Assembly (NCBI GenBank): GCA_019911865.1
Contig: JAIOJQ010000385.1
Coordinates: 1-56,566 of the forward strand
Reading direction: 5' to 3'
Source: Thermoanaerobaculia bacterium
GTDB lineage: Bacteria; Acidobacteriota; Thermoanaerobaculia; Multivoradales; JAGPDF01
DNA: 56,566 nucleotides
In this document: piece by piece, positions 4,600 to 22,988 of the stretch
Layout: each line of letters begins with the position of its first letter
Position numbering within the stretch: the stretch's first letter is position 1
Notes under the pieces: model-generated
What the model saw: only the letters and a program-made list of their open reading frames with translations
Databases searched by the model: none
What the model was told of the DNA's origin: nothing
Position numbers and translations under genes: made by a program

Positions 4600-4667
4600 G
4601 CGCCAAAATATAGCTGGTTATGCGCGAAAGTAGATATAAACGGCAATAATTGGGTAAATTCCGCGCC

Positions 4668-5885
4668 ATGGACCCGATCCTCAACCCCTACTCCCCGGGC
4701 GCCGGCTCGCCACCGCCCGAGCTGGTCGGGCGCGACCCGGTGCTCGAACAGGCGCGCATCCTTCTGGGTCGGGTGCGCCTCGGACGACCCGAAAAGAGCC
4801 TTCTGCTCACCGGCCTCCGGGGCGTCGGCAAGACCGTGCTCCTCAACGAGATCCGGCGGACCGCGGAAGGGCAGGGTTACCGGACCGTCGCGATCGAAGC
4901 GCTCGAATCCAAGCCGCTCGCCGAACTGCTGATCCCTTACCTCAAGCAGCTCCTGTTCGACCTTGACCGGATGGCCGGAGCGGGAGCGAAGGTCAGGAAG
5001 GGCCTCGGCGTCCTCAGGAGCTTCATCGGGTCCATCCGCGTCACCGTCAGCGACGTCACCTTCGGGCTGGACATCGATCCGGAGCCCGGAGCGGCCGACA
5101 GCGGCGACCTCGAAATCGACCTGCCCAAGCTCTTCGTCGCCATCGCCGAGGCCGCCAAGGACAAGGGCACCGCGGTCGCTCTCTTCATCGACCAAGTGCA
5201 GTACTTCAGCCACAAAGAGCTCGGAGCCCTGGTCGTCTCCCTCCACCGCATCCAGCAGGAACAGTTGCCGTTGGTCTTCGTCGGTGCGGGCCTGCCGATT
5301 CTCCCGGGCATGGCCGGAGAGGCCAAGTCTTACGCCGAGCGGCTCCTGAGCTTCCCGGATATCGGGGCGCTGTCCGCAGCGGATGCGGCGAAAGCGCTCG
5401 AAGCGCCGGCGGCGGCGGCCGGGGTGACCTACGAGCGCAAAGCGATCGCCGAGATCTACCGGCTCACCCAGGGATATCCGTACTTCCTCCAGGAGTGGGG
5501 GTATCAGGCCTGGAACCTCGCGCCGGCGTCCCCAATCTCGCTCGAGATCGTCGAGCGGGCGACGCCGGTCGTGCTCCAGCGCCTCGACGCGAACTTCTTC
5601 AGGGTGCGCTTCGACCGCCTCACACCGAGCGAGAAGAGTTACCTGCGGGCCATGGCCGAGCTCGGCTCGGGCCCGTACCGCACGGGCGAGATCGCCGAGG
5701 TACTCGGCGTCAAGGTGACGAGCCTCGGGCCGGTGCGCGCGAAACTGATCCGCAAGGGAATGGTCTACAGCCCGGCCCATGGTGAGATGGCGTTCACGGT
5801 GCCGCTGTTCGACGAGTTCATGCGGCGCGCGATGCCGGATCGGGTCCAGCGACGTGGAGAACAGCGAGGCGGAAAGGCGAAGTGA
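4668..5885 (+). CDS. AAA_16/ORC-Cdc6-like ATPase with C-terminal winged-helix-like region
   Basis: ORF 4650..5885 trimmed to ATG 4668. LNPYSPGAGSPPPELVGRD...SLLLTGLRGVGKTVLLNEI is a Walker A motif and ALFIDQVQY is Walker B-like. A 60-nt AT-rich island (4601..4660) lies upstream. Confidence 0.85.
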   Translation: MDPILNPYSPGAGSPPPELVGRDPVLEQARILLGRVRLGRPEKSLLLTGLRGVGKTVLLNEIRRTAEGQGYRTVAIEALESKPLAELLIPYLKQLLFDLDRMAGAGAKVRKGLGVLRSFIGSIRVTVSDVTFGLDIDPEPGAADSGDLEIDLPKLFVAIAEAAKDKGTAVALFIDQVQYFSHKELGALVVSLHRIQQEQLPLVFVGAGLPILPGMAGEAKSYAERLLSFPDIGALSAADAAKALEAPAAAAGVTYERKAIAEIYRLTQGYPYFLQEWGYQAWNLAPASPISLEIVERATPVVLQRLDANFFRVRFDRLTPSEKSYLRAMAELGSGPYRTGEIAEVLGVKVTSLGPVRAKLIRKGMVYSPAHGEMAFTVPLFDEFMRRAMPDRVQRRGEQRGGKAK

Positions 5886-5893
5886 GCTTCGAA

Positions 5894-6175
5894 CAGCGTA
5901 CGCCGCCGGAGACGCGCTGGCAAGGAATGGCTCTGCGGGCGGGGCTACGGTGGGTAGCGAGCGGCTGGAGTCAGCAGTAGCTTGCGGGTCGCACGCTTTC
6001 AGCGGGCTAGGGCGCGACCTCGGGATTCATGTCCGGATCGCGCGGCGCGAGGTGAAGCTCGTCACGACCCCCACTCGTATCAAGCTTTGGCCCGAAGCGG
6101 AGCGAGCCCGACGGAGCGCCTGACCGGGTCTGCCGCTCGGCGGAGTCGGCCGCGCGCGGCGATCCATCGACCCGC
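5894..6175 (+). repeat. Copy B of the ~250-nt intergenic repeat (has an extra ~33-nt hairpin insert)
   Basis: Collinear with 2783..3030 and in the same orientation. It carries an extra segment at about 6018..6049 (cctcgggattcatgtccggatcgcgcggcgcg) flanked by gcgcga/tcgcgc inverted arms. Confidence 0.75.
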
Positions 6176-6255
6176 CGACCGCGAACGGATGTCTCACTTG
6201 AGCGGAGGGCCTCTACCGGAGTTGATGGATACTTGGATCCTCGCGATGGGGAGGA

Positions 6256-7116
6256 TTGGCTGATGGTGCAAGCTCTCGCTGCAGACTGAGAGGACAGGGT
6301 TGGGCCGTGGCCAGAGATGACTATGCGTTCGGAGAGGCGGGGGCCGCGGTGGAGGAGCAGGTCCGCGATCAACTGCAGAAAGAAGTGCGACTATTCGAGC
6401 GCGCTGTGGATCTAGCGAAGGCTGCAATCGGGTCAGCCGCGCTCGCAGAGGCAGATCGACAGAGGGTGATAGCGACGGGTCTTCTGGGGAGACTGCTTCG
6501 TCTTTCCGAGGCGGGTGTCCTGCTGACGCTGCGAGGTCTGGAGCACGACGCAGCGATTCTCATTCGCGCGGCGGTCGAGCTCTACGTGAAGCTCCGGCAC
6601 TGCGCTCTCGATCCGGACTTCCATCGTCGGTATGTCGACGCTGATCTCTACCGTAGGCGGAAGCTGGCCAATGGTTCGCTCTCTCTACCCGATTTGCCGA
6701 AAGTCCGGAAGACGAGCCTCGAAGAGGCGAAGCGGGAGCTCCAGGCGGAGATCGACGGGCGGGGAGCCAAGGAGCTTCCAGGAATCGAGCAGCTCTGCAC
6801 GGATGCAGGGTGCGCAAGGGACTACCAGTCCGTCTTCCGCATTACGAGCGCAGCGGTCCACACGGCGCCGAGAGTCCTGAATGACTTGGTTGAGATGAAG
6901 GACGGAAGGCTGGTCGGCTTCGATTTCGGTCCGAGGGCGGCCAAGGCGAACAGCTACATCCTGACTCTTGCCGAATACCTTCTGAGGGCCACACGGGACT
7001 TCCAGAACCTGATGGGCTCGAAAGCGCCCTCTGAGGAGTTCCAACAAATGTGGATCGAACAGCAGGAGGCATGCGCAGGACTGGCTCAGGCGGGAGAGGC
7101 CGAGGAAGAGGTCTGA
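6256..7116 (+). CDS. Hypothetical protein, DUF5677-like
   Basis: 286-codon ORF. The TTG start at 6256 is uncertain; GTG near 6307 is possible. ...LLGRLLRLSEAGVLLTLRGLEHDAAILIRAAVELYVKLRH... resembles the helical DUF5677 pattern (from memory). Confidence 0.6.
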   Translation: MADGASSRCRLRGQGWAVARDDYAFGEAGAAVEEQVRDQLQKEVRLFERAVDLAKAAIGSAALAEADRQRVIATGLLGRLLRLSEAGVLLTLRGLEHDAAILIRAAVELYVKLRHCALDPDFHRRYVDADLYRRRKLANGSLSLPDLPKVRKTSLEEAKRELQAEIDGRGAKELPGIEQLCTDAGCARDYQSVFRITSAAVHTAPRVLNDLVEMKDGRLVGFDFGPRAAKANSYILTLAEYLLRATRDFQNLMGSKAPSEEFQQMWIEQQEACAGLAQAGEAEEEV

Positions 7117-7179
7117 CGAGTTCCTAGAGCCTCAATTTGCTTGGCTACTGGGGCGAAGTGCTCCGGCCATGCGTCTGCG

Positions 7180-8367
7180 CTATCTCCCGGGCATCGTAAA
7201 CTCGACAACGAACATCTCGCCGCCAAACGGAACCCGCAGTTGAACCTTGTCTCCGCGAGCTCGGGAGAGGTGCACGATGCCGCCGTAGAAAGTTCCGGGA
7301 TTCAGCGTGTGTCTTCGTGCGAGCGATGAAGCCATGGCTTGGTAGGACGCCTTGTGCTGCTCTTCGATTGCTCGGGCCTGAGCAAATCTCCGATCGAACG
7401 CGGCATTGCGCTCTGCGGGGGACGGCCAATTCGTGATGACTCCCGATCTGCTGGTCGTTCCCGAGTAGCTTCCCGTCACCGAAGTGCCCAGAGGAGAACG
7501 GCTGCGCGCCGAGAAGTCGCCTGAATGTGTTGTCGCTTCCCGGTAGCTGGTAGTCGTCGGCTGTGTGTCGGCATACGCGGCCATTCCCGCCGCGATTCCA
7601 TTGAGCGCCTCTGACCATGCCTGTTTCGTGCGGATCTTCTTCTCGTACTCCTCCGGGCCGAAGACTCGAAGAGGGACAGCAGCAATGCGCTCTCTTTCCC
7701 GCTTGAAGCAGGTTGCCGCGATGGTTGACGGATCAAAGGTAATCGAACGGCCTGTTCCGTTCGCCAGATACACAAACGCCTGAGTATCTCGACCAGCGGT
7801 GAAGGATACCCGCAACTGGAGATCACCGTCCTCGGCAGTTCCGATGACGAATGACGTACCTTCGATCCACCGCGCTTCGTAGGATATGGCCGCTGCACGA
7901 CGTTCCGGTCTATAGGGAACCGCATTCGCCTGCAGCTCCGCATCGCTTTCTAAGCGAAGGTCCTCGGTGGCTCGAACCGCGGGTTTGATCCTCCTGTCGG
8001 AGCTTTGACCCCGCGCCAACGACCCATCCTTCACCAGCTGATTGCCCAACGCGACAATTCGGCAGTCAGCCGTGACTACATACTGCAGCCGAGACTTCGC
8101 GCACTCCTCGAGCGCATGCACCGAAGCCTCTTCGTCATCGGCGGCGCCCCAGTAATACCCGGCAGCCCAGGTCCCGGATTCATCCACTGCCACCGCGAAA
8201 GCCTTATGAGGTCCGGGCTTCCCTAAGTACTTCTTGAACTCCGCCTCATACGGTGGTTTCGCGAGGAGTGTTGTAGACGTCGCGAAAACCACGCTGATTA
8301 CGATGGCAAGCAACCCACGTCGTGCGACCCCGACCCCCTGCCTTTTCTCGAGTGTCTTCGCTGCCAT
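7180..8367 (-). CDS. Membrane-anchored/secreted protein with DUF4189-like N-terminal module
   Basis: 395 aa. A TM/signal segment (LLAIVISVVFATSTTLLA) is followed by HKAFAVAVDESGTWAAGYYWGAADDEEASVHALEECAKS...ADC. The C-terminal domain is unknown. GC is noticeably lower than in the flanks. Confidence 0.7.
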   Translation of the reverse strand: MAAKTLEKRQGVGVARRGLLAIVISVVFATSTTLLAKPPYEAEFKKYLGKPGPHKAFAVAVDESGTWAAGYYWGAADDEEASVHALEECAKSRLQYVVTADCRIVALGNQLVKDGSLARGQSSDRRIKPAVRATEDLRLESDAELQANAVPYRPERRAAAISYEARWIEGTSFVIGTAEDGDLQLRVSFTAGRDTQAFVYLANGTGRSITFDPSTIAATCFKRERERIAAVPLRVFGPEEYEKKIRTKQAWSEALNGIAAGMAAYADTQPTTTSYREATTHSGDFSARSRSPLGTSVTGSYSGTTSRSGVITNWPSPAERNAAFDRRFAQARAIEEQHKASYQAMASSLARRHTLNPGTFYGGIVHLSRARGDKVQLRVPFGGEMFVVEFTMPGR

Positions 8368-8484
8368 CTGTCTTACCTCACCTTCTTGAGCGTCTGCGGA
8401 GCAATGATGCCTTGACTTGCCCGGCGCTTCAAGTGGACTCGGTCGGTTGAGAGTTTCCTGATTCCGCTGCTGGCCGCCTGAGCT

Positions 8485-8943
8485 TCATCGGACATCACTC
8501 GATCGAGTTACTCCGTCATGACCTTCGTCCGGCCGTTCCAGGCCGGGAGCTGAACGTCGATTCCGCGGCAGTATGCGGCAGCGGGGTCGCACGATCGCCA
8601 TCTTCGACCGGCACGAGCGCCCAATGCGGACAAACGCGTTGTGGCGCATCCGGAATCCGGGGAGATGATGCCGAAACCACGACGGCGACGCGTATAGGTT
8701 CCAGTAAGCCTCTTCCTTCTTGACACCGGCGCGTCCGTTGCGCTCCATTCCCAGTGGCAGAGCCCGGGCTCCGTGTCGATCCGCCAAGTGATAGCAAGGA
8801 GTGTGAGGGACGCTGACATCGACGAGGAATTCGCCGATGCGGTGGCGATTGCCGATCGTGACGCCGCTCCCGAGCAGCCCCTCTGTTGACAGGTTCTTTC
8901 CGCATGGGGCGCCGCATTCCTCGGTGCCGATCTGTCCCGTCAA
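8485..8943 (-). pseudogene. MOSC-domain gene remnant (N-terminally truncated, probably frameshifted)
   Basis: GKNLSTEGLLGSGVTIGNRHRIGEFLVDVSVPHTPCYHLADRHG matches the MOSC core (GENl.t.G......iGdr..iG...l.v...r.PC..l). The sequence after ~ERNGRAGV becomes junk-like, and there is no room for the N-terminal half before the upstream gene. Confidence 0.35.
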
Positions 8944-12131: not shown

Positions 12132-12307
12132 CGCCGAAGGACCCTCGAAGCTATGTCATCGCGATGCTTCGCCGGGATCTCGGACGCGAACCTACCGAGC
12201 GCGAGGTTGAGGTCTGGGTCGAGTGGATCGGGGCCAGCAGCGCGCTCGATCCGGATTCGAAGTACCCGGGCTTCCGGCTCGTGAGGAGGAAAAGGCCGGA
12301 GCGGTGA
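12128..12307 (+). CDS. Small ORF, DUF4214-like fragment
   Basis: 59 aa, below the track cutoff: MTPKDPRSYVIAMLRRDLGREPTEREVEVWVEWIGASS...FRLVRRKRPER. Its 3' end lies inside the 62-bp direct repeat. It is a paralogue of 16565..16750 (shared RRDLG.E ... FRLVR.K.PER). Confidence 0.3.
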   Translation: MTPKDPRSYVIAMLRRDLGREPTEREVEVWVEWIGASSALDPDSKYPGFRLVRRKRPER

Positions 12308-12336
12308 GGGCTTACTCGGCGCGCTCGGCGGCCTCG
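12272..12336 (+). repeat. Left copy of a 62-65 bp imperfect direct repeat
   Basis: ttccggctcgtgaggaggaaaaggccggagcggtgagggcttactcggcgcgctcggcggcctcg aligns with ttcaggctcgtgagggggaaagggccggagcggtgaggcctattcgccgcgctcggcggcctcg at 16715..16778, about 85% identical. Confidence 0.8.
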
Positions 12337-12456
12337 GGCGTGCAACCCTTGGCTGCAGCGCCGCGAGCTTGGAGTGGCTCCCCACGAAGCGCCGGACGGA
12401 GCTTGCGCAGGGCTAGCCTGGCCGCTCCTCGACCGCGGAGACGGACCTGTGCTCGG

Positions 12457-13239
12457 TCAACCCGCCACGTTCCGGTACTTCCTGCCGACGACATAGCAGC
12501 GGCTGGTAGCAGGGCGTTCGATCCTCAGCAAGTCTGCTACGAGCGACCAAGTCGACACGGCGCCTTCTTGATCGAGCGTCGCATTGTCTTGCGGTCTGGC
12601 GAGTACGGGTCCATCGTTGGATTCTCCGATCTCGTCGAGATCGCCCCTCTTGGCGAGTTCAGCGAACTCCCGAGCAGCGCAGTGGGCGTCAATCCGATTC
12701 TCGTTGCCGCCGAGCGGCCCCCCGTACTCATGCGCCGGCTTGAAGTCGCCAGCAACGAAGGCTTCCCAGACAAGCAGGGAAGGCGAGTCAGCGTTGGGCT
12801 CGGTTGACTCCAGCTCCCGGAACCGCGTGAGCATCCGGAGGCGACCGGTTGGCCGGACCAGAGGTTCGAGCGCAAGGAAGGCGAGCTGCGTTGCTCGCAC
12901 GGCCGCGGAAGCACCCGCCTGGAGATACCACTCGTGTTTCTTCTCCGCATCGAAGCGCCAGCGGAAGAGGGTTCCTCGGTCGAACGTCCTCACGAGTGGT
13001 GTCCACATTGGAGCTTCCACACCCAGCGCGACGCGGCGATGATTGGCGATGTCGTCGCGGAGCGCCTCCTGCAGGGCAGCTAGCCGCGAGAATCGGACAT
13101 TCAATGGACCTTGATTTTCAGGAACCTCGGAATCAACTCGACCCCACGCGAAGGACTTCCCAGCAACGCCTCCATCGCGGCCGACCTCCACGGTTCCAAC
13201 ATCAATGCAGTAGCTGACGATCTCCATAGGTCCCTCCAT
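12457..13239 (-). CDS. Hypothetical protein, possible RNase H-like (DUF429-like) nuclease fold
   Basis: ORF 12457..13785 trimmed to ATG 13239 (MEGPMEIVSYCIDVGTVEV...). The upstream 180 codons are shadow overlapping the WYL gene. The spacing of acidic/His residues in CIDVG ... ALGVEAPMW ... NRIDAHCAAREFA suggests an RNase H-like fold (weak). Confidence 0.65.
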   Translation of the reverse strand: MEGPMEIVSYCIDVGTVEVGRDGGVAGKSFAWGRVDSEVPENQGPLNVRFSRLAALQEALRDDIANHRRVALGVEAPMWTPLVRTFDRGTLFRWRFDAEKKHEWYLQAGASAAVRATQLAFLALEPLVRPTGRLRMLTRFRELESTEPNADSPSLLVWEAFVAGDFKPAHEYGGPLGGNENRIDAHCAAREFAELAKRGDLDEIGESNDGPVLARPQDNATLDQEGAVSTWSLVADLLRIERPATSRCYVVGRKYRNVAG

Positions 13240-13277
13240 TCGACTCGACCAGCCGGACGTGACGGCGCGCTTCGGCT

Positions 13278-14246
13278 TCAATCCTCGGTGGGCTTGTCGG
13301 GGCTCCAGGTCACGCGGTCGATGCTCGGTTGCTCGGATTGGAGCCGCCTCTCGAGGCGGAACTGGGCTCGGACGTCGAATTCGACAGTCAGGCGCCCTTG
13401 GCGGTCCCAATGTTCGGTCTGATCCGGGTGCCATTTGCGCTCGGCGATACGGGGAGAAGCCGCTTTGGAAAAGGTGATGCGTACGCGGCGGACCGGGGCA
13501 CCGTCGGTCTGGAGGCCGTCGATTCCCTCCCGGACGTAGCGGGAAAGGTCGAAGTCGACCGGGAGTTCGAAGGTCCGCTCGGTCACGGTGGCCGCGCGGA
13601 TGCGGGCGAGCAGGAAAGTGCGGCGCGCCCCGGACCGGTGATCGTGGCCATAGAGGTTCCAATCGCCGTCCGTGACGATGAGGCCGTACGGATCGATTCG
13701 TCGTCGTCGCGCAGGCTCTCCCGGCTTCTGATAGGTGACCGCCAGAGTGAGCGAGCGACGAAGAGAGTCCAGGACGGCGTCCCACACCTTCGCCCGGATA
13801 GCTGCCGCGGGCTGGCCCGTGAATGCGACGCGGGACGTGATCCAGTTTGCCGCGAAGCGCTCGCGTTCCGGGAGCGCGCGCTCAAAGAGTCCGAACGCGC
13901 GGCGTGCAGCAGCCTCCCAGGGCGTGCCGGCGTATTGCCCCAGGGCCTCGCGCATCAGCAGAAGCGCGTGGAGATCGGTCTCGGAAAGCAGAACGGCCGG
14001 TAGAGCGAAAGCAGGCTCGGCGTAGTGCCATCCCTTCCGGTGTTCGTCGTAGACGAGCGGTGCACCGAGCGAGTCCCGCAAGTAGGCGAAATCGCGCTGG
14101 ATCGTGCGGGTCGAAACGCCGAGCTCACGAGCCAGCGAAGCCTGGCTCACTCGCTCCCCGTCCCGCAATCGGGCATCGATCTCGAGCAGGCGACCGAAGG
14201 AGGAGAGGTAATCGCCGGGGCGATGGAGCGTCCTCATTGTTCTCAT
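13278..14246 (-). CDS. WYL-domain transcriptional regulator (HTH-WYL-WCX; BrxR/CapW/PafBC-like)
   Basis: The N-terminal HTH is SQASLARELGVSTRTIQRDFAYLRD. The central region is LTLAVTYQKPGEPARRRRIDPYGLIVTDGDWNLYGHDHRSGARRTFLLARI (WYL-type). There is a C-terminal extension. It is divergent from the AAA+ gene. Confidence 0.85.
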   Translation of the reverse strand: MRTMRTLHRPGDYLSSFGRLLEIDARLRDGERVSQASLARELGVSTRTIQRDFAYLRDSLGAPLVYDEHRKGWHYAEPAFALPAVLLSETDLHALLLMREALGQYAGTPWEAAARRAFGLFERALPERERFAANWITSRVAFTGQPAAAIRAKVWDAVLDSLRRSLTLAVTYQKPGEPARRRRIDPYGLIVTDGDWNLYGHDHRSGARRTFLLARIRAATVTERTFELPVDFDLSRYVREGIDGLQTDGAPVRRVRITFSKAASPRIAERKWHPDQTEHWDRQGRLTVEFDVRAQFRLERRLQSEQPSIDRVTWSPDKPTED

Positions 14247-14258
14247 TCGATCCTGTCA

Positions 14259-14291
14259 CAGGACCCCGGACAGGGTCTGTCCAGGGTCCGG
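14259..14291. promoter_or_regulatory. 33-bp near-palindrome in the WYL/AAA+ divergent intergenic region (candidate operator)
   Basis: caggaccccggacag-ggt-ctgtccagggtccgg: the 15-nt arms match at 13 of 15 positions, with a perfect core GGACAG-N3-CTGTCC. It lies 31 nt upstream of the AAA+ GTG and 13 nt upstream of the WYL start. Confidence 0.5.
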
Positions 14292-14321
14292 TCGTCATGC
14301 TGCGCGTGAAAGGAGATTCAT

Positions 14322-15698
14322 GTGTTGGCTCAGACCTCCCCCCGTTCCGTCGACTCCCTCGCCCCCGCTCCTTCCTCGCGCAGCGAGCCGCTTCACAAGC
14401 GCTCGACCGCCGAGTTCCGTCGACTGCTTGGCGCCGCTACGAGCGACGATGTTCTGGTACGGCTTGCTTCCAACTTCCTCGGAGTCGAGACCCCGATGCG
14501 GCACTACCAGCTGCACGGCAAACTCCGGACCGCACTCGCTTGGCATACGCTCCCGGACTTCCTCGCGATGCAAGGGCTCGTTGTTGCCGGCGCTGTGGGT
14601 AGCACCGGCTCCGGAAGGCACGCGTCCGAGGAGCTCGGCGTCGCCGAGTTCGAGAGCCTCCGGCTCGGTCGCGACCTCTGGCTCGAGATCCCGAAGAACC
14701 TGCTGATCTTTGTGGAGTCGGAGGAGGGCAGCAGCGCTCAGCGGGCGGTGTTGCGCTTCGAGATGGACTTGATGCGCGAAGGCCGTGTGGCGGTTGGGGC
14801 TTTTCATCTCGACCCCCACCCTCGGCTGCTCGAGGACTGGTTCGATTACACACGGCGCGCCAACCCTCTGCGCGGGCGCAAGCTCTTCGCCAACGGGACC
14901 CTGATCGAGGGACGGCCGGAAGTGGAGCGCGGGCGGCTCTTCCTTCCCGAGGTCGTCCGTCAACGGCTCGACTTTGCGCTCCGTCGCTTCGTCTCTCCGG
15001 CCACAGCGCGGCTCGCCGCGCTCGGCGTACGTCAACGCGCCGGACTGATTCTTGCGGGGCCGCCGGGAACCGGGAAGAGCACGCTCGGCAAGGAGCTCGT
15101 CGAGACCCTCGCCACGAGCCTGCTCTGGATCACCCCCGGCGACCTGAGTGAAGCGAATGATGTCCGGGAGGCTTACGAGATCGCGCGCTGGCTCGCGCCC
15201 ACCGTGGTCTTTCTGGAGGATCTCGATCTCGTCGCGGAAAGCCGCGAGCGTGGCAATCGGGGATCCATGCTCGGCCAGCTGATGAACGAGCTCGACGGCG
15301 GCGTCGGTGATCACCCGGTACTGACCATCGCCACGACGAATCGACTCGAGGTGGTCGAGCAGGCGGTCAGCAATCGTCCTGGCCGCTTCGATCAGATTCT
15401 GGAGATCGGACCGCCCGACTCGGTCTCTCGCCGCGGCATGCTCGTCCATCGGTTGCGCAATGCGGATCTCGCCGAGGACCTTCTCGACTGGTCATGCGGG
15501 CTCCTCGAGGGCGCCACGGGCGCGGAGATCGAGGAGGTGGCAAACTCTGCCCTGGCGGCAGCCGTTTTCGAAGAGGGGGCGGGAGAGTCACGCCCTCACA
15601 TCACGCGGTCGCACCTCGAAGAGGCGCTCGAGCGAGTGTCCCGTCACATCGCAGACCGCAAAGTGGGGTTCGATCGTCCAGCGGCGCGCCAACGTTGA
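14322..15698 (+). CDS. Classical-clade AAA+ ATPase (FtsH/CDC48-like module) with ~230-aa unknown N-terminal domain
   Basis: GTG start with AGGAG 6 nt upstream. Motifs: GLILAGPPGTGKSTLGKEL (Walker A), VVFLEDLDLV (Walker B), VLTIATTNRLEVVEQAVSNRPGRFDQILEIGPPD (sensor-1/SRH). Confidence 0.85.
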   Translation: MLAQTSPRSVDSLAPAPSSRSEPLHKRSTAEFRRLLGAATSDDVLVRLASNFLGVETPMRHYQLHGKLRTALAWHTLPDFLAMQGLVVAGAVGSTGSGRHASEELGVAEFESLRLGRDLWLEIPKNLLIFVESEEGSSAQRAVLRFEMDLMREGRVAVGAFHLDPHPRLLEDWFDYTRRANPLRGRKLFANGTLIEGRPEVERGRLFLPEVVRQRLDFALRRFVSPATARLAALGVRQRAGLILAGPPGTGKSTLGKELVETLATSLLWITPGDLSEANDVREAYEIARWLAPTVVFLEDLDLVAESRERGNRGSMLGQLMNELDGGVGDHPVLTIATTNRLEVVEQAVSNRPGRFDQILEIGPPDSVSRRGMLVHRLRNADLAEDLLDWSCGLLEGATGAEIEEVANSALAAAVFEEGAGESRPHITRSHLEEALERVSRHIADRKVGFDRPAARQR

Positions 15699-15749
15699 GC
15701 GCCTACCAATGAGCAGCCCACGGAGGCTTTCCGAAAAGGGAGAAGCCCG

Positions 15750-16493
15750 ATGAGCGCAGATCCGCAAAACGACCCGATCGTCTGGTACCCGGGCAGCGGA
15801 AGGGACGTCGGCCTCTGCCTTACGGACATCGACGACAATCCGGTCGGTCTCCACCTGCGGCGAGCCGATGGGAGTGGCGATGTTCGGCTCTGGATGTCCG
15901 ACTACCACCCGGAGGTGGAAGCCGAGATGTCTCGCGAGACGCCGGAGGTTTCGGGCTTCGAGTCTCCGGATTGGAAACAGCAATTCGGGGTCTCGGGGCT
16001 GCGGTGTCGGAACGTCGACACGCTGGTCAGCGCCGATTGGTCCCAGGTACGCAAGGAAACAGGGGAGCTCCGTCGAGCAGATATGTTCCCGGAAGCGGAC
16101 AACCCGAGGTACGACCGAGCTACCCTCGAGGTCGAAGTCGACCGGCGTTCCCGAGGGATCAGGAGCCGGGATCGCTACGAGGTTTGGTTCTCACCGTTCG
16201 AGTCAGGAACGATGGTCCGCCGCGTTCTGGCGCCCGGTCGATTCGCGGTGGTCGGCATTGTTCTTCTGCGTGTAGGGGGATTCGGGGACCTCCGTCCGCC
16301 GGGGCCGACGCACCACGAACCGCCGTTCTTCGATGAGGTCGCGAAGCATCTGGGACTCCCGGAGTTCGTTCTGACAGACGAGGAGCCTGGAGAGCGCTCG
16401 CCTTGGACGAGGCGCCCGTATGAGGTCACGGGGCATGCCCTTCAGGGCTGGAAGGTTCCTGCGACGGTGAACATGTATCGGCGACGCGACTGA
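15750..16493 (+). CDS. Hypothetical protein (co-oriented with the AAA+ gene)
   Basis: 247 aa, starting 51 nt after the AAA+ stop: MSADPQNDPIVWYPGSGRDVGLCLTDIDDNPVGLHL... Composition is protein-like. No family recognised. Confidence 0.65.
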   Translation: MSADPQNDPIVWYPGSGRDVGLCLTDIDDNPVGLHLRRADGSGDVRLWMSDYHPEVEAEMSRETPEVSGFESPDWKQQFGVSGLRCRNVDTLVSADWSQVRKETGELRRADMFPEADNPRYDRATLEVEVDRRSRGIRSRDRYEVWFSPFESGTMVRRVLAPGRFAVVGIVLLRVGGFGDLRPPGPTHHEPPFFDEVAKHLGLPEFVLTDEEPGERSPWTRRPYEVTGHALQGWKVPATVNMYRRRD

Positions 16494-16564: not shown

Positions 16565-16750
16565 ATGCCCGAGCGTGCTTCCGCGTTGATCGACGGCGGA
16601 CTTGCTGCGGAGAGGCGCGATCTCGGTGGAGAGGCCTTCTCCGGCTGGCTTCGCCGTGCTTGGAAGGAGCCTGCGGCCCCCGGCTGGATCTTCGAGCTGC
16701 TCTGGCAGCCGACCTTCAGGCTCGTGAGGGGGAAAGGGCCGGAGCGGTGA
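16565..16750 (+). CDS. Small ORF, paralogue of 12128..12307
   Basis: 61 aa, ...AAERRDLGGEAFSGWL...TFRLVRGKGPER. The 3' end lies in the right copy of the direct repeat. Confidence 0.3.
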   Translation: MPERASALIDGGLAAERRDLGGEAFSGWLRRAWKEPAAPGWIFELLWQPTFRLVRGKGPER

Positions 16751-16778
16751 GGCCTATTCGCCGCGCTCGGCGGCCTCG
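16715..16778 (+). repeat. Right copy of the 62-65 bp imperfect direct repeat
   Basis: See 12272..12336. It spans the convergent 3' ends of 16565..16750 (+) and 16754..16978 (-). Confidence 0.8.
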
Positions 16779-16978
16779 AGCTCATTGTCGACTCCCAGCT
16801 GGCGGGCGGCCGAGTCGTACATGAGGCGCGCGGCTTTCTTGGCGTCCTCGAGCTTGCGAACCTCGGCCTCGACCGCCGCGAGCTTGGCGGCAATCTGGCG
16901 ATCCGCGTCCCGGTAAGCGTCCAGGGCGACTCGGAGGGTGTTTTCCAGCAGCCGGACTTGCTCGGCACCGTAGGTCAC
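16754..16978 (-). CDS. Small coiled-coil protein
   Basis: 74 aa with a GTG start and high third-position GC: ...RQIAAKLAAVEAEVRKLEDAKKAARLMYDSAARQL...EAAERGE. Only its last ~8 codons are duplicated, at 12312..12335. Confidence 0.45.
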   Translation of the reverse strand: MTYGAEQVRLLENTLRVALDAYRDADRQIAAKLAAVEAEVRKLEDAKKAARLMYDSAARQLGVDNELEAAERGE

Positions 16979-17232
16979 GGGCCGAATCCTATCCCGGGGG
17001 TGACGCGCGGCGGGAATGGCGGAACCCAGTCCGGGGGACCGGCTCTGGTGAACCGGAACGGTCCGGCTGGCTACGGCGCTTCCTGGCGGTGCGAGATTCC
17101 GGCACAGGCTATTCTTCGGGTAGCAACGGTTCAGCAGCGGTAATCCCCCCCGGGCGCGTCCACGCTGCGTGAGCAGCCCGGAGGAACGGCCACGCCGCTG
17201 TGAGGGCGGCCAGGGGAGAGGGGGGCAGGGCC

Positions 17233-18873
17233 ATGATCGTCTATTCGACCGTCCTCAAGGTTGCTCGCGGATCGGAGCCCGGGTTCAGGCGCGCGATCTT
17301 CGAGTGGCTCACCACGAAGCACCACACTCCAACTCTGGGTGGCGTACGGGCCGCCGAAGAGCTCACCAGCGGCGCCGGAGGGCGAATCGGTCAGAGCCCG
17401 GCCTGGCTCGATGTACTCGACGACCGCGGCGGCGAGTCTCCCGACTGGAGGACGCTCGGCGTCCGCTACCGGCATCCGGATAGCCAGGACGCCAATCGCA
17501 GCTGGGTCACGGTCGCCGGCTACCGGAGAGGCCTTCCGGAGACGGACGATGTGATCACCGTGGAGCTGCGCGTCGAGGAGATGAGTCCGCTCGTTCGGAC
17601 GAAGTTCGAACCCTCGCGCCCGAATCTGATCGATCTGCTCTTGCGCCACTGCGCGCCGTCGCCGGCAACGCCAGGCCTCAAGGTCCGCGACTTGAAGACA
17701 CCCGAGGACGTCGGCCGCTGGGCCGAAGGACTCCATTCGATGAACCGCCGCGTGCCCTACGTGCTCGTCAGCCCGACGGAGCAGTGGACGGGTCGCTATC
17801 TTGCCGACGCCGATGTGCTGCAGCACCTTCTCCTGGGAGTAGCCGAGGTCGCCCGAATTCCGATCGAAGCGGACCAGTTCCTGGTCACCGACAAGATCGG
17901 CAAGCCATACTCTGCCTGGTGGGGGGCCGTCGCGTTCTACCTGCCGCCATCCGCCCGCTGGAGTTCCCAGCGGGGCACGCTGTTTCCCGTCAAGCGCTTC
18001 CTCCGGGAAGAACTCGAACGGGAGGAGAAGCCCGAAGCGAACCTGATCTTCCCGCACGTCCTCCACTGGGCGAACTGGCACGCTGCCGACTCGGTGATTC
18101 GCTGGGAAGCCCTGACCGATATCGCCGCCCGCGCGCGCCTCACGGCCGCCCGGGCGCGAATCGCTCAGGAGGGTGCCGGCGACCAGGCGGAGCTGCTCAA
18201 GCTCTTCGAGAAGGAAGTCGAGAGGCAGTCTCTCGATCTCGAAGTCCTGCGCAAGGCGCACGATGCGGCGGCCGAGGAGCGGGATCTGGCGCGACTGGAG
18301 CTCGAAGAGAAGACGGCGGAGGTCGAGTTCCAGAAGTCGGCGTTCATCCAGATGCAGGAACAGATGACCCGCGAGGCGCCGCGAGTCGAGCTCACGGCCG
18401 AGCTCGCCGAAGCGGTCCTCGCCTTCGCCGGCGGACGAGCGAATCTCACGTCCGCTTTGGCCTTGGTGGCCGCGGCGAGGCCCAACCGGGTCGAGATCCT
18501 GGAAAGCGCCTGGCGTTCGGCCCGCGAGGCCGACACGCTCGAGCCCCGAGTGGTCCGGCATGCCACGGACCTGCTCCTCACCCTCTCGGGGCCCTATTGG
18601 GAGCAGCTACGGGAAGGCAAGGGTGATGCCGGGGCCCGGGGGCTCTTCGGGGACAGCTACGCGGCCCGGGAATCGGAGACAGTCGCGACCAATCGGCGGG
18701 CGCGAGACCTCCGGACCTTCAACTACTCCGGCGAGTCCGTCCGGATGGAGAGCCACCTCCGGGTGGGCGTCAAGGACTCGATCGCCACCACCTGGCGCTG
18801 TCACTTCCTCTGGGACTCCGTCCGCCAGCGCATCGTGATCGGGCACTGCGGCAAGCATCTCGATTTCCGCTGA
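17233..18873 (+). CDS. Large hypothetical protein with central coiled coil and RelE/ParE-like C-terminal motif
   Basis: ORF 17200..18873 trimmed to ATG 17233 (MIVYSTVLKV...). The coiled coil is ...LEVLRKAHDAAAEERDLARLELEEKTAEVEFQKSAFIQMQEQM. The C-terminus is RTFNYSGESVRMESHLRVGVKDSIATTWRCHFLWDSVRQRIVIGHCGKHLDFR. Confidence 0.75.
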   Translation: MIVYSTVLKVARGSEPGFRRAIFEWLTTKHHTPTLGGVRAAEELTSGAGGRIGQSPAWLDVLDDRGGESPDWRTLGVRYRHPDSQDANRSWVTVAGYRRGLPETDDVITVELRVEEMSPLVRTKFEPSRPNLIDLLLRHCAPSPATPGLKVRDLKTPEDVGRWAEGLHSMNRRVPYVLVSPTEQWTGRYLADADVLQHLLLGVAEVARIPIEADQFLVTDKIGKPYSAWWGAVAFYLPPSARWSSQRGTLFPVKRFLREELEREEKPEANLIFPHVLHWANWHAADSVIRWEALTDIAARARLTAARARIAQEGAGDQAELLKLFEKEVERQSLDLEVLRKAHDAAAEERDLARLELEEKTAEVEFQKSAFIQMQEQMTREAPRVELTAELAEAVLAFAGGRANLTSALALVAAARPNRVEILESAWRSAREADTLEPRVVRHATDLLLTLSGPYWEQLREGKGDAGARGLFGDSYAARESETVATNRRARDLRTFNYSGESVRMESHLRVGVKDSIATTWRCHFLWDSVRQRIVIGHCGKHLDFR

Positions 18874-18905: not shown

Positions 18906-19844
18906 TCACCAGCTGTTCATGATGTCCTTGAGGTGGAACAGGCTTCCTGACGGGACGATCTTCGAGACCGAGCGTTGGCCGGCGAGTACGAAGACGAGGG
19001 TGGTGAGGACGACCAGGATGAGTTTGATCCAGCGGGTGAAGTAGCCGGTGACGACGGTGGAAATCTCGGCGTCGGTCGTTGCCGCGACAAAAGCACGAAC
19101 AACCAGGGAATCGCTCGCAAACTCGGCGTTAAGACTGGCGATCTGCGGGTTAAGGACGAGGTGAATCAAGTTGATCAGGACGAAGCTCACCAAAAGGCGC
19201 ACGCCGAGACGGATCAGATAGGTGAGGAAGTGATCCGTGATGCTGGTCGTGAAGCGATTCGGTGAGAAGGCAATGAAGATCGGAGCGTAGAGGGGAACAA
19301 AGAGTGCCTCCAGAACTGGCCAGAACGCCGCAAAATAGATGACGAGGACTCCGGCGAAGACAATGAAGGCTGAGCCCATCATCAGCAAGACGGGCAACAT
19401 GCCAACTCCTGTTGCCAAGCCACCGGCGGCTTTTGCGAGGATGATCTGGTTCGAGGCTTCGATCAGGTGAAGCGTCTGAGTGACCGACGAGGCCCACTGC
19501 CCGGCGTCCGGTAGAGCGAACTCGGAGAGCATGTAGGGCAGTCCAACGATCAGATGGCGAATGGGGCCCACAACGAAGAACGCGGCAAAGAAGGCTGTAT
19601 AGATGGCCCAGCGGATGAACCGACCGGGAAGTGCAGCCACGTCCTCACCGCGCGAGGTTACATAGAGAAAGCCCAGCCGGATGAGTTCCAAAGTGGCAAG
19701 GGCCAGGAACAGGTTGCGGCACCACGGATTGATCTGAATCAGGTAGGTGCCGATTGCTCCTTTGACCTGTATCAGGAACTGTCCGACGTCATTGGAAAAG
19801 GAGAAGGCAAAACTCTGAAAGGCTTCATTGAAGGAAGGGTGCAT
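18906..19844 (-). CDS. trbL: TrbL/VirB6-family polytopic T4SS membrane protein
   Basis: ORF trimmed to ATG 19844 (MHPSFNEAFQSFAF...). It has at least 6 hydrophobic helices and sits immediately downstream of the trbJ-like gene. GC is about 53%, against about 68% in the flanks. Confidence 0.65.
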   Translation of the reverse strand: MHPSFNEAFQSFAFSFSNDVGQFLIQVKGAIGTYLIQINPWCRNLFLALATLELIRLGFLYVTSRGEDVAALPGRFIRWAIYTAFFAAFFVVGPIRHLIVGLPYMLSEFALPDAGQWASSVTQTLHLIEASNQIILAKAAGGLATGVGMLPVLLMMGSAFIVFAGVLVIYFAAFWPVLEALFVPLYAPIFIAFSPNRFTTSITDHFLTYLIRLGVRLLVSFVLINLIHLVLNPQIASLNAEFASDSLVVRAFVAATTDAEISTVVTGYFTRWIKLILVVLTTLVFVLAGQRSVSKIVPSGSLFHLKDIMNSW

Positions 19845-19860
19845 GGCTGGTGGCGGTCGC

Positions 19861-20718
19861 TCAGCTGCCCGGCTGGAGAATGCTTCCGACGTCGATGGTG
19901 CCCGGGTCCTCGGGATCGACAATCACCGTGGCCAACATGCCGCGCGTCGTCTCGAGGGCGGCGCGTTGGTTTTCGATCTCGTTCTGGAGGGCGAGCGTTT
20001 CGAGGTTCGACAGCTGCATCTGGGAGTGGTGCTGGTGGTTCTGGACCTGAAAGTCCATCGAATCGAGCATCTCCTGCGCACGGCGTTCGAGCGTCTCCAT
20101 GCCCATGTCGATCCCGAACATCTCTTCGGCCATGCGAGCATCGCGAATGATCTGCTGGATCTGTTGGAGCCGGACAGCGAAGGGCTGCAAGCGCCAGGAG
20201 AGGTAGTTCTGGGCGTAGGAGGTCCCCCGAGTCGTCTTGGAGATGATTCGATAGCGTTCGATCAGGCGGTCGAGCTCGCCGGTGACTTGCCGCCCGTAGA
20301 CGGTCTCCGGGTACTGGCCAGTGGCGCCGCTTTCGTCGATGACGCCGGTCCCCCACGAGTCGGTGTTGCCGAAGAGAATCTCCCAGTTGGCGGCGAGGTT
20401 CTCGAGAGTCTGGGCATACCCCATCGTGTCGGGGTTCATGTCGGGATCCTCTTCCGTCCCGCCAAGCGTCTGGTAGATCCGGGCGTTCATGCCGACGTCG
20501 TCGTCAAAGAGCATTTCGACGTCCGCGTACCACTGCATCGCCAGCGAGTAGTACTCGGAATAGGCGCGGACGTACTCCATGATGCGCTCGTAGCTGGACG
20601 AGGCGATGTGTGCCACGTCAGTGACCGGAATCTGCGCTGCGGCCCGGCTCGCGGTGGCGAGGGGCACGGCGAGCGTGGCAGCCACGAGCACGCAGCCGAA
20701 CAACTTGCGGGGCTTCAT
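19861..20718 (-). CDS. trbJ: TrbJ/VirB5-like secreted T4SS protein
   Basis: Trimmed to ATG 20718, with GGAGGA 6 nt upstream. A signal peptide (MKPRKLFGCVLVAATLAVPLATASRAAAQ) is followed by IPVTDVAHI..., then helical/coiled-coil Q-rich segments. Confidence 0.65.
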   Translation of the reverse strand: MKPRKLFGCVLVAATLAVPLATASRAAAQIPVTDVAHIASSSYERIMEYVRAYSEYYSLAMQWYADVEMLFDDDVGMNARIYQTLGGTEEDPDMNPDTMGYAQTLENLAANWEILFGNTDSWGTGVIDESGATGQYPETVYGRQVTGELDRLIERYRIISKTTRGTSYAQNYLSWRLQPFAVRLQQIQQIIRDARMAEEMFGIDMGMETLERRAQEMLDSMDFQVQNHQHHSQMQLSNLETLALQNEIENQRAALETTRGMLATVIVDPEDPGTIDVGSILQPGS

Positions 20719-21308: not shown

Positions 21309-22988
21309 TCAATCCGAGAGGTGGTGGAGTTCGATTTCGAGGAACCGGGCCTTGACGGTCAACTGTTCGACTGAGGCCCGTGCACTGCTGCGAATCCCGG
21401 CGGCCTTGTTGGCCCTCGCGTGCGTGATGGCGGGCCTGGAGCCGGTCAAGCCCGCGATCCGGCGGACAGCACGGTCGATCTGGAGCTTGAGGGACTGTTC
21501 GGCCGATGCGCGGGGCTCCGGTCCAGAGGCTGGCGGTGGCGTGTTAGCGAGGTCAGCGAGAGAAAAGTTCGGGGTCGTGACACGCACCGAGCCCGCCTCG
21601 GAGGCCAAGGCGGTGAAAATCCCGGGCAGTCTTGGCCTGCCCGGTCGCATGAGGGTGCCGGATTCGCCCTTCTGGCGCTCCACGAGGCCGGCTGCGGCTT
21701 CCCCTGCGATGGCCAAGGCGAAGGCTCGGAGGCGGGGATCGTCGGGCAGGTAGAGCCGGGCGGACTGTTTCGAGAGAGCATCGGCCTGCCAGCGCACCAG
21801 GCGACCAACCACCTGCCGGAAGAAGAGCTCGGTCGAGGTAACAGCCGCGTAGACGCCGACTCGAAGCCGCGGAATGTCGACTCCCTCAGAGACCATCCGG
21901 ACGGCGACAATCCAGGGCTCCCTCCCCTTGCGGAAACGCTCGATCCAGTGGGAAGCGGAGGAGTTGTCCGACAGGACGACGGTCGGCATCGAGCCGGTGA
22001 GCTGGCGCAGATGAAAGGCGATATCCCGGGCGTGCTGCTGGTCCATCGCGAGGACAAGTCCGCCCGCATGGGGTGCCCCGGATTGTCGAGTCCGGACGAG
22101 GTCCTGGTGGGCTTGCCGAAGCACCTCGGGAAGCCAGTTGCCGTGAGGCGAAAGCGCGGTGCGGAGCCGATGGTTGAGCTCGTCGACGCCGATCGAGTCT
22201 TCGAAGGTGGCCGTACGAAGGCCGGCCTTCGAGGACCTCCACTCGAAGGTGCCGCCAACGTGGGGGAATGCGATCGGCCGACAGACGCGATCAGCGACCG
22301 CCTGGGCGTAGCCGTAGCGAAAGTCGGGAGCAGCCTGACCGTCCGAGGCGTAGGCGACAAAGGGGATCGGCCTGCCGTCGGATCGAAACGGCGTCCCAGA
22401 CAGCGCGATTCGATGGGCCGCGGCGCCTACGGCCAGGGCCAACGCCTCGCCCCAGCGCGCCTCGTCGCCGGCGTGATGGATCTCGTCGAGCAGGACGACG
22501 GTGGGAAGCCGGGCAACGAAGCGGGCAACGGCCTCGGGGTGAAGCGCGAGCTGGTGGTAGGTCAGGACGACGCCGTCGTAGGAGCGACGGAGCGGACATC
22601 CCGGAGTCCAGGCCCAGTCGAGTTCGAAGCCGTGCTCGTGGGCCGCGAAAGCCCACTGGCGGGTAAGGTGCGCTGTCGGAACGACAACGAGGAGCTGAGT
22701 GGCGCGACGTGTCTGGAAGAGCTGGCGTGCTGCTAGAACGCCGAAGGCGGTCTTGCCGGCACCCGGACAGCTCTCGGCGAGGAAGTCTGGCGCCGAAGAG
22801 CCGGAAAGGCACGCGAGTGCCTCGGATTGCCAACGCCGGAGCGGGGTCAAAGCTGGAACGTGAGGAGTAGCTACTGTTTTCTGACGAGGGCTTCCTGGGC
22901 GGCCGGAGAGAGGGGCCCAAAGGCGTTTTCGAGAGCCACGAGAAGATCGGCAGGCGGAGCTTCGCCGCTGGCGAGGCGGAAAGCCCAA
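21309..22988 (-). CDS. SF2 DEAD/DEAH-type helicase (type III restriction Res-like core)
   Basis: Motifs: ESCPGAGKTAFG (motif I), VVLLDEIHHAG (motif II), ALSGTPFRSD (motif III), MVSEGVDIPRLRVGVY (V/VI). The true start is probably near 22860, because the first ~40 codons overlap the upstream lipoprotein gene and are Arg-rich. Confidence 0.85.
   Translation of the reverse strand: MGFPPRQRRSSACRSSRGSRKRLWAPLSGRPGSPRQKTVATPHVPALTPLRRWQSEALACLSGSSAPDFLAESCPGAGKTAFGVLAARQLFQTRRATQLLVVVPTAHLTRQWAFAAHEHGFELDWAWTPGCPLRRSYDGVVLTYHQLALHPEAVARFVARLPTVVLLDEIHHAGDEARWGEALALAVGAAAHRIALSGTPFRSDGRPIPFVAYASDGQAAPDFRYGYAQAVADRVCRPIAFPHVGGTFEWRSSKAGLRTATFEDSIGVDELNHRLRTALSPHGNWLPEVLRQAHQDLVRTRQSGAPHAGGLVLAMDQQHARDIAFHLRQLTGSMPTVVLSDNSSASHWIERFRKGREPWIVAVRMVSEGVDIPRLRVGVYAAVTSTELFFRQVVGRLVRWQADALSKQSARLYLPDDPRLRAFALAIAGEAAAGLVERQKGESGTLMRPGRPRLPGIFTALASEAGSVRVTTPNFSLADLANTPPPASGPEPRASAEQSLKLQIDRAVRRIAGLTGSRPAITHARANKAAGIRSSARASVEQLTVKARFLEIELHHLSD

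Follow-up and report, generated by a model that had tools for sequence, protein, structure and literature searches.

A PafBC/DriD-like WYL regulator and a predicted Bcs1/YjoB-type AAA+ ATPase form a conserved gene pair in a putative defense island of a Thermoanaerobaculia bacterium

Which of four adjacent genes on a contig from the metagenome-assembled genome of a Thermoanaerobaculia bacterium (Acidobacteriota; GenBank assembly GCA_019911865.1, contig JAIOJQ010000385.1) belong together, and what might they do? The genes occupy positions 12457..16493 of the window, by which we mean the whole 56.5-kb stretch of DNA that was analyzed (56,566 nucleotides, nt), and they are arranged in two divergent arms. 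One arm carries a WYL-type transcription factor followed by an open reading frame, ORF2, and the other carries an AAA+ ATPase followed by a further open reading frame, ORF4. An initial annotation of this DNA had treated the four genes as one set and proposed a novel ATPase-plus-nuclease system. Comparison across lineages points instead to a conserved unit of two genes, encoding a PafBC/DriD-like helix-turn-helix (HTH) WYL regulator and an AAA+ ATPase.

The WYL gene (13278..14246, minus strand) encodes a 322-amino-acid (aa) HTH-WYL-(WCX) transcription factor, and ORF2 (12457..13227, minus strand) starts 50 nt downstream of it on the same strand. Counted from the ATG behind a GGAGG ribosome-binding site, which we prefer, ORF2 is 256 aa long; the 260 aa originally assigned to it are obtained from a more upstream ATG. 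On the opposite arm, the AAA+ gene (14322..15698, plus strand; 458 aa) begins with a GTG located 6 nt past AAGGAGA. It is followed 51 nt downstream by ORF4 (15750..16493, plus strand; 247 aa), the fold of which is unassigned. The two arms share an intergenic region of exactly 75 nt (14247..14321), in agreement with the original description of a divergent pair. All four reading frames have the bias in third-position G+C (GC3) of real genes in this genome.

To delimit the family, we counted as true members only those proteins matching a hidden Markov model (HMM) of the ATPase N-terminal domain. This definition yielded 12 lineages with ATPases 30-63% identical to one another, and the ATPase has more than 30 full-length homologs, N-domain included, that are 34-97% identical to it over more than 85% of its length. 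A WYL gene adjoins the ATPase gene in nine of the 12 lineages (window/L001/L002, L003/L004, L005, L007, L008, L013, L111, L113/L114, and L115/L116). The two genes are divergent in eight of these lineages, separated by a spacer of 80-100 nt (75 nt in the window). The exception is L008, where the WYL gene lies 1.5 kb past the 3' end of the ATPase gene, is not divergent from it, and forms an operon with a DUF2779 gene.

The order of all four genes was kept only with ATPases 97% (L001, L002) or 85% (P0002) identical to that of the window, and in the latter case the P0002 ATPase, the ORF2-like protein P0127, and the ORF4-like protein P0124 have a common 6,504-nt longest contig. In the loci examined, ORF2 and ORF4 were absent beside every family ATPase of less than 85% identity. 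ORF2 has 24 homologs, and the distant ones (30-40% identical) reside in unrelated neighborhoods with neither a WYL gene nor this ATPase. A word-indexed search returned only four near-identical relatives of ORF4. An exhaustive HMMER search returned 24 remote representatives with no Pfam family above threshold, and an HMM built from this wider ORF4 family found no match beside any other family ATPase. The initial annotation had staked its four-gene set on co-occurrence in other genomes, and co-occurrence fails below 85% ATPase identity. Because ORF2 and ORF4 accompany the ATPase only at identities of at least 85%, the four-gene system fails, and because only the WYL-AAA+ pair is conserved, an ATPase-plus-nuclease combination is not the conserved logic of the locus. 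ORF2 and ORF4 are lineage-specific cargo, that is, local add-ons to the pair.

We also asked how widespread the family is. A pattern-limited profile scan covering 185,579 species, one genome each, mostly matched generic AAA proteins; only three of its matches were true family members, and each of these came from a short contig. A degenerate DNA pattern specific to the family (ARWLxP...LEDLD..AE) and validated on known family loci had no match in viral contigs and found 20 loci in metagenomes, most of which belong to a sister AAA family. Members of this sister family (L093-L105, L107, L108, L110, and L112) carry the ARWLxP...LEDLD..AE signature and an ED Walker B motif, have a different N-terminal domain, and have no WYL neighbor.

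The intergenic region contains a predicted operator (14261..14289), an imperfect 29-nt palindrome of the form GGACC-N3-GACA-N5-TGTC-N3-GGTCC in which 24 of 29 positions are self-complementary. The 33-bp palindrome first reported at 14259..14291 is present but imperfect, with 26 of 33 positions self-complementary. A conserved operator core, GACAGGGTCTGTC (14269..14281), yields a GGAC-N7-GTCC arrangement resembling a DriD box. Each of the nine lineages with a WYL gene, L008 included, has the motif GACA-N5-TGTC 53-60 nt ahead of the ATPase start codon, and the three lineages that have no WYL gene (L006, L009, and L015) lack it. The window has a single occurrence, and the remaining scanned family loci have only two more at other places.

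The geometry downstream of the motif is also fixed. An nAnnnT hexamer (mostly TAnnnT) follows the motif after 13-14 nt, at an offset of 14-15, in nine of nine WYL lineages. The putative -10-like hexamer of the window, CATGCT (14296..14301, plus strand), begins at offset 15 past TGTC. Downstream of the hexamer, a Shine-Dalgarno sequence, GAAAGGAG, is conserved across the WYL lineages. With a normal 17-nt spacer the -35 position would sit in the right half of the palindrome, and a scan with the sigma-70 consensus found no promoter. The WYL-AAA+ pairing, the predicted operator, and the fixed spacing of operator, -10-like hexamer, and Shine-Dalgarno sequence are shown by comparison of the loci. 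The correlated presence and absence of motif and WYL gene, together with this fixed geometry, constitute strong comparative evidence that the WYL clade has the ATPase gene as its conserved regulatory target. The earlier view that regulator and ATPase are divergently coupled through a common palindromic site is supported. The predicted operator also lies 23-35 nt upstream of the WYL start codon and therefore probably limits the WYL-ORF2 transcript as well.

This arrangement recalls DriD, the consensus site of which is ATACGAC-N7-GTCGTAT, and the crystallized DriD site, ATACGACAGTTACTGTCGTAT, contains GACA-N5-TGTC (PMC10853764). DriD boxes extend over the site where a -35 element would be expected but is missing, and their spacing to the -10 element is constant; of the two directions of the bidirectional promoter at its own gene, DriD activates that of the divergent operon and not that of driD (PMC13004042).

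The regulator itself matched HTH_11 (PF08279; 32.7 bits versus a cut-off of 25, residues 19-67), WYL (PF13280; 54.1 bits versus 21.8, residues 154-221), and the WYL model of PADLOC (E-value 2.1e-38). Its match to WCX (PF25583) reached 15.9 bits, under the cut-off of 23.9. Thus, of the HTH-WYL-WCX architecture first assigned to it, the HTH and WYL domains scored above their cut-offs and WCX did not. When a profile of the WYL clade was compared with PDB sequences, it matched PafBC (77 bits), PafB (56 bits), DriD (40 bits), BrxR (35 bits), and CapW (31 bits). Among these five matches, only the alignments to PafBC, PafB, and DriD extend through the WCX region (residues ~225-312). DriD contacts single-stranded DNA (ssDNA) through Y168, R178, R204, and W206 (PMC9186387), and these residues align with Y171, R181, R208, and F210, which are invariant in the WYL clade. 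The tyrosine of the WYL motif is retained in most orthologs of the window regulator. By homology, the regulator would work most like DriD and PafBC, and binding of ssDNA is predicted; the sequence similarity is too weak to establish that it belongs to the DriD family proper. The WYL genes of L007 (4895..5764) and L008 (8840..9811) include translated stretches that appear out of frame, which could be either assembly frameshift errors or pseudogenes.

The ATPase, the predicted target, matched PF00004 at 75.3 bits, and the family profile matched p97/Cdc48 with an E-value of 2e-82, best over the D2 module. Across 30 ATPase sequences the GPPGTGK, ED, TTN, and RPGRF motifs are invariant, and in the window protein they appear as Walker A (GPPGTGKS), sensor 1 (TTN), and the arginine-finger region (RPGRFD). 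The protein had been described as having a textbook Walker A/B and second region of homology. Walker A, sensor 1, and the second region of homology conform to this description, but Walker B (VVFLEDLD) reads ED rather than DE, and both E299 and D300 of LEDLD are invariant in the family. An ED Walker B is an exceptional trait common to YjoB and Bcs1 (PMC9565160). Opposite the p97 D2 segment LTMWFG the family has a six-residue gap that deletes the aromatic part of pore loop 1; a conserved W-x-TPGD[LF] motif stands in its place, and the pore-loop-2 region is also shorter than in p97. The label of classical AAA+ protein accordingly holds for the module, which is of the classical clade, but not for the Bcs1/YjoB-type ED motif and the missing aromatic pore loop 1.

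An AlphaFold model of the ATPase (pLDDT, for predicted local distance difference test, 83; predicted template modeling score, pTM, 0.80 for the whole model) includes a confidently modeled N-terminal alpha/beta domain at residues ~55-190, preceded by disordered residues 1-15. By Foldseek, the best PDB structure match was Bacillus subtilis YjoB, with 442 aligned columns that take in the N-domain; Bcs1 entries were aligned over 430-449 columns. Motifs and model alike indicate that the ATPase is a Bcs1/YjoB-type AAA protein and not a classical threading one. Both in Bcs1 and in YjoB, a chaperone of the sigma-W stress regulon, an internal chamber accommodates folded clients (PMC9565160). By analogy, we infer a non-threading, chamber-type protein-handling machine. 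All family members also have an invariant Gly-Phe ([VA]GF[GAE]) within a low-confidence, disordered C-terminal tail (residues 445-458; 15654..15695). Short docking motifs typically have this form, which is reminiscent of the ClpX IGF loop or of proteasomal HbYX tails. L009 encodes two tandem family paralogs (6001..8761) that are 52% identical, with no WYL gene and no operator, and these may form a hetero-oligomeric ring. Neither NCBIfam, Pfam, nor PADLOC v2 has a model for the ATPase family at the level of its N-domain, and annotation pipelines miss the family because that domain is absent from these resources.

The two add-on genes of the window differ in how much can be said about them. The motifs CIDVG, GVEAP, and IDAH, to which the initial annotation had drawn attention in ORF2, land on conserved residues D9, E71, and D180. 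Among 25 family members, D9 (strand 1), E71 (end of strand 4), E155 (strand 5), and D180 (the following helix) are invariant or nearly so, with E155 invariant. The AlphaFold model of ORF2 (pLDDT 78, pTM 0.83) has a beta-beta-beta-alpha-beta-alpha-beta-alpha core, and this predicted order of strands and helices is that of an RNase-H-like core. Homology searches gave less. There was no Pfam match in any of the 25 family members and no match in a sequence-profile search of the PDB; the best Foldseek match in the PDB (E-value 0.049) and an hhalign comparison with the DUF429-like neighbor of L005 were not significant; and the weak best matches in BFVD (E-values 0.008-0.08) were RuvC, RNase H, resolvases, and terminase nucleases. 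The nature of the BFVD matches agrees qualitatively with such a core. The RNase-H-like label first given to ORF2 nevertheless found no significant match in Pfam, the PDB, or BFVD; we do not assign ORF2 to that class, and on the strength of its conserved residues and model it is a possible RNase-H-like/RuvC-like nuclease. ORF4 has an N-terminal VWYPGSGxD motif, of which the form VWYPG[SC]GxD is common to the remote homologs P0149-P0160, and a sub-threshold match to the Pfam family DUF7663.

The genes that adjoin the pair vary, and in many uncultured bacteria they include defense or nuclease genes. The WYL gene of L113 heads an hsdR-x-hsdM-hsdS operon that makes up a complete type I restriction-modification (R-M) system, and L111, the ATPase of which is 43% identical to that of L113, has a complete type I R-M system convergent to its WYL gene. 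AbiEi/AbiEii lie beside the pair in L115/L116, as do genes for an NB-ARC nucleoside triphosphatase (NTPase) and HsdS in L003, DUF2779 in L003/L004 and L008, and ArdC and RadC in L007; in L005, a DUF429-like gene comes after the WYL gene. DUF2779 is a predicted RNase-H-like exonuclease fused to a PD-(D/E)XK domain (PMC3985635). Between hsdR and hsdM lies an unannotated gene of 267-326 aa (L113 1489..2292; L111 6012..6992), and an ORF near the pair in L003 (4568..5371; 267 aa) has the same length as this embedded gene. The embedded genes of L113 and L111 and the 267-aa ORF of L003 have no Pfam match.

In the window, a PhD/PIN toxin-antitoxin pair lies near the four genes, and directly downstream of them is a HEC-07-like gene (17200..18873, plus strand; 557 aa) matching the PADLOC HEC-07 model over nearly its full length (E-value 3.4e-29). 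Its product also matches the C-terminus of NsnC, and the gene is likewise present in L001 (ATPase 97% identical). HEC-07 is a RelE-domain single-gene candidate, among seven reported to reduce plaquing (bioRxiv 10.1101/2024.01.29.577857). Other ORFs of the window encode a STAND/AAA_16 NTPase (4650..5885, plus strand), a TrbL/VirB6-like protein (18906..19922, minus strand), a ResIII/DEAD helicase with PbeA-like PADLOC matches (21309..22988, minus strand), and a staphylococcal-nuclease-domain protein (24207..24767, minus strand). At 12-24 kb the G+C fraction is 0.58-0.68, less than the 0.71-0.72 of the flanking 10-12 kb stretch, and this together with these ORFs suggests a mobile or defense island. 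A single minus-strand ORF of 3,907 aa with coding-type GC3 bias also occupies 37340..49063. Defense-type neighbors, in the window and in unrelated genomes, uphold the defense setting suggested at the outset, and this circumstantial evidence favors a role in defense or conflict over housekeeping.

The pair also appears to move. L003 and L004 encode an identical ATPase protein with WYL and DUF2779 neighbors, yet their left flanks differ: L004 has fumarase, cupin, and NUDIX genes where L003 has an unidentified partial ORF. On the right, L003 reaches farther, to its NB-ARC and HsdS genes. The occurrence of the WYL-AAA+-DUF2779 trio with two left flanks therefore indicates its recent mobility.

A direct repeat surrounds the four genes of the window. 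The repeat, originally reported as 62-65 bp bracketing 4.4 kb, is real but about 75 nt long, with a left copy at 12266..12339 and a right copy at 16709..16781 that share ~87% identity. The window has two copies and shuffled sequence has none; both copies are also present in L001 (ATPase 97% identical), where the left one is slightly diverged. The right copy overlaps the stop and last codons of a 74-aa gene (16754..16978, minus strand), and comprises its last ~9 codons plus ~45 nt downstream. We therefore rejected the repeat as a generic boundary element, since its sequence is the 3' end and downstream region of this gene. The 74-aa protein is coiled-coil-like, and the 3' end and downstream region of its gene are duplicated 4.44 kb away. 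A minus-strand ORF at the left repeat (12312..12494) resembles a decayed paralog of the 74-aa gene, and the left repeat appears to be a decayed copy of that gene's 3' end and downstream region. The arrangement suggests insertion or duplication of the four-gene block through recombination at the 74-aa gene. There is no integrase within the repeat-bracketed 4.4 kb and no tRNA gene associated with the repeat, and for this reason the boundary of an integrative element is unsupported.

What would such a pair do? We think it probable that the two genes form a cassette in which an ssDNA-gated WYL factor switches on a chambered ATPase, probably in defense or genotoxic stress. Homology supports a dimeric WYL factor with an ssDNA-type pocket and an ED-type, Bcs1/YjoB-like AAA protein without a threading loop. 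According to this model, ssDNA arising from DNA damage or from the replication of phage or other foreign DNA would bind the WYL domain and switch the factor, which would then turn on the AAA+ gene and, in this locus, the co-directional ORF4. In switching, the factor could recruit RNA polymerase, as DriD does, to a promoter without a -35 element; alternatively, it could lift repression in the manner of CapW and BrxR. The factor would probably limit its own transcript, which here also carries ORF2. The ATPase would form a ring with its N-terminal domains enclosing a chamber, and would hold, dismantle, or translocate folded proteins or complexes without threading or unfolding them; action on folded proteins is expected because the aromatic pore loop is missing. 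In defense islands the cassette would carry variable cargo beside the regulator, including ORF2, a DUF429-like protein, a DUF2779 nuclease, type I R-M, or AbiE. The cassette would most likely be an inducible component acting against phage or foreign DNA, or in genotoxic stress.

Several observations weigh against this model. The sample of 12 lineages is small and comes mostly from short metagenomic contigs. In three lineages (L006, L009, and L015) the ATPase persists with neither WYL gene nor operator, and it can therefore work under other control. In the window protein, the motif reads WNL, placing an asparagine at the position of Y192, the WYL-motif tyrosine that contacts ssDNA in DriD. Where the operator lies does not by itself distinguish activation from repression. 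Over the whole chain, the match to YjoB reaches a TM-score of only 0.48-0.54 at a root-mean-square deviation of 9.7 Å, and the Pfam model BCS1_N does not match the ATPase. Some contexts look like housekeeping, namely those of L004 (fumarase, NUDIX, and SUI1) and L009 (gatB). A defense role rests solely on neighborhood, because PADLOC and NCBIfam have no model of the family, and every mechanistic step is a prediction from sequence and models.

Other explanations account for parts of these data. The locus could encode one dedicated ATPase-plus-nuclease defense system, with an ORF2 nuclease, ORF4, and the AAA+ protein as obligate partners and the WYL protein sensing infection. The same gene order accompanies the 97% and 85% identical ATPases, the spacing is compatible with two operons around one operator, the direct repeat brackets the set as if it had moved as a cassette, and ORF2 has conserved acidic residues on a predicted RNase-H-like topology. 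Nevertheless, we find this explanation very unlikely given that ORF2 and ORF4 vanish from the side of every family ATPase below 85% identity, that the indexed search gave ORF4 only four close relatives, that distant ORF2 homologs stand alone in unrelated contexts, and that the WYL-adjacent partners elsewhere (DUF2779, DUF429-like, type I R-M, and AbiE) are non-homologous. Unlikely, in our judgment, is a general genotoxic-stress response in which an activator like PafBC, DriD, or SiwR induces a YjoB-like, substrate-specific chaperone and the defense neighbors are bystanders. SiwR, a WYL activator of adjacent stress genes, sets a precedent for such targets. PafBC and DriD, to which the regulator scores nearest, are activators that respond to DNA damage; the geometry of the operator and the layout of the promoter are DriD-like; YjoB, structurally the nearest match to the ATPase, is a chaperone of the sigma-W stress regulon; the housekeeping-like settings of L004 and L009 fit; and no viral contig carries the family motif. 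This response is harder to square with a family so patchy and rare (three members in the pattern-limited scan of 185,579 species), with the different genomic positions of one identical protein in L003 and L004, and with the recurrence across lineages of type I R-M, AbiE, HEC-07, and toxin-antitoxin genes next to the pair. Furthermore, CapW, which senses ssDNA, shows that WYL factors of this kind control immune systems too (PMC11662680).

That the AAA+ protein is an IetA-type anti-phage ATPase, from a known Iet-like system lacking its protease, is almost certainly wrong. IetA was the best PADLOC match (E-value 2.9e-17), with NCBIfam IteA_antiphage at 3.1e-17, but the match is limited to the generic AAA module (residues 198-434). 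The NCBIfam score of 62.8 bits compares with a cut-off of 510, and PAN (96 bits), FtsH (93 bits), and CDC48 (83 bits) all score higher. The N-domain is unrelated to the PADLOC IetA models, no IetS-like protease lies nearby, and no protease family is found in ORF2, ORF4, or their neighbors. Sub-threshold score, generic AAA coverage, and missing IetS effectively refute the IetA identity. Membership in TRIP13 was rejected on scores and missing partners. In keeping with the original impression that the locus matches no named defense system, the PADLOC run gave only weak generic AAA matches, and we found no description of the WYL-AAA+ pairing in PADLOC v2, NCBIfam, Pfam, or the literature searched.

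Returning to the two-gene cassette, a more specific version, which we consider quite unlikely, is that the WYL gene and the Bcs1-like ATPase constitute a portable control cassette placed beside different nucleases and R-M systems (type I R-M, DUF2779, a DUF429-like gene, ORF2, and AbiE). The ssDNA-induced ring would capture or dismantle folded nuclease or toxin complexes, either arming them or protecting the chromosome from them. In the chromosome-protecting case it would be a dedicated counterpart of ClpXP-mediated restriction alleviation. If true, a folded-protein machine of the Bcs1 type, a class known so far from mitochondrial folded-protein translocation and one Bacillus stress chaperone, would for the first time have a role in bacterial immunity or genome protection. 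More generally, should the pair act in immunity at all, it would add a protein-remodeling effector or controller to the defense repertoire. It may also explain how nucleases and R-M systems stay in check when ssDNA accumulates. Meanwhile, the operator and promoter layout across lineages 30-63% identical amounts to a testable regulon of one protein, one site, and one target.

Like the IetA protein of IetAS, the ATPase combines an AAA module with an extra N-terminal region and resides in defense islands; unlike IetA, it misses the curated threshold widely, has no IetS protease, and matches generic AAA models better. YjoB and Bcs1 are closer. With them the ATPase shares a single classical-clade AAA module in which Walker B reads ED, an alpha/beta domain of 160-230 aa at the N-terminus, the lack of a conventional aromatic threading loop, and the best Foldseek matches, which are nearly full length. 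It differs from both in having no detectable N-domain sequence similarity (BCS1_N is unmatched), an AAA module closer in sequence to p97/Cdc48 D2, and the invariant C-terminal GF motif. The ATPase model has no N-terminal membrane-anchor helix of the kind found in Bcs1, although no membrane-helix predictor was applied, and putative control by a WYL factor replaces the sigma-W control of YjoB.

On the regulatory side, BrxR and CapW, the WYL repressors of BREX and CBASS operons, are likewise HTH-WYL-WCX factors that head or diverge from defense genes, and their genomic setting is also a defense island. Unlike the regulator described here, they score 35 and 31 bits against the clade profile over the WYL domain only, are shorter (about 290-300 aa versus 322), and have no constant AAA+ partner. 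Moreover, the conserved operator here is at the ATPase promoter and not at variable defense cargo. Another parallel is DriD of Caulobacter crescentus, a WYL activator of an SOS-independent response to DNA damage. The two proteins are similar in size (322 versus 327 aa) and in their order of HTH, linker, WYL, and WCX regions. The putative operator here resembles the palindromic DriD boxes in its GAC-N7-GTC geometry and in its predicted place over the -35 position at a fixed distance from a -10-like hexamer, and in both cases the regulator gene is at a bidirectional promoter facing its target, which is a predicted one here. The tyrosine, two arginines, and aromatic residue that contact ssDNA are conserved, here as judged from alignment. 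They differ in that the similarity is only 40 bits and covers the WYL and WCX regions alone, the outer box bases are GGAC/GTCC versus CGAC/GTCG in DriD, and the WYL-motif tyrosine is an asparagine in the window protein. The target here is an AAA+ ATPase and not didA, recA, bapE, or the divergent CCNA_03891/CCNA_01149 operon, and activation, documented for DriD, is here one of two possible modes. WYL-gated defense and stress modules were already known; what is new is the constant AAA+ partner of the Bcs1/YjoB type, the gene of which has a conserved operator.

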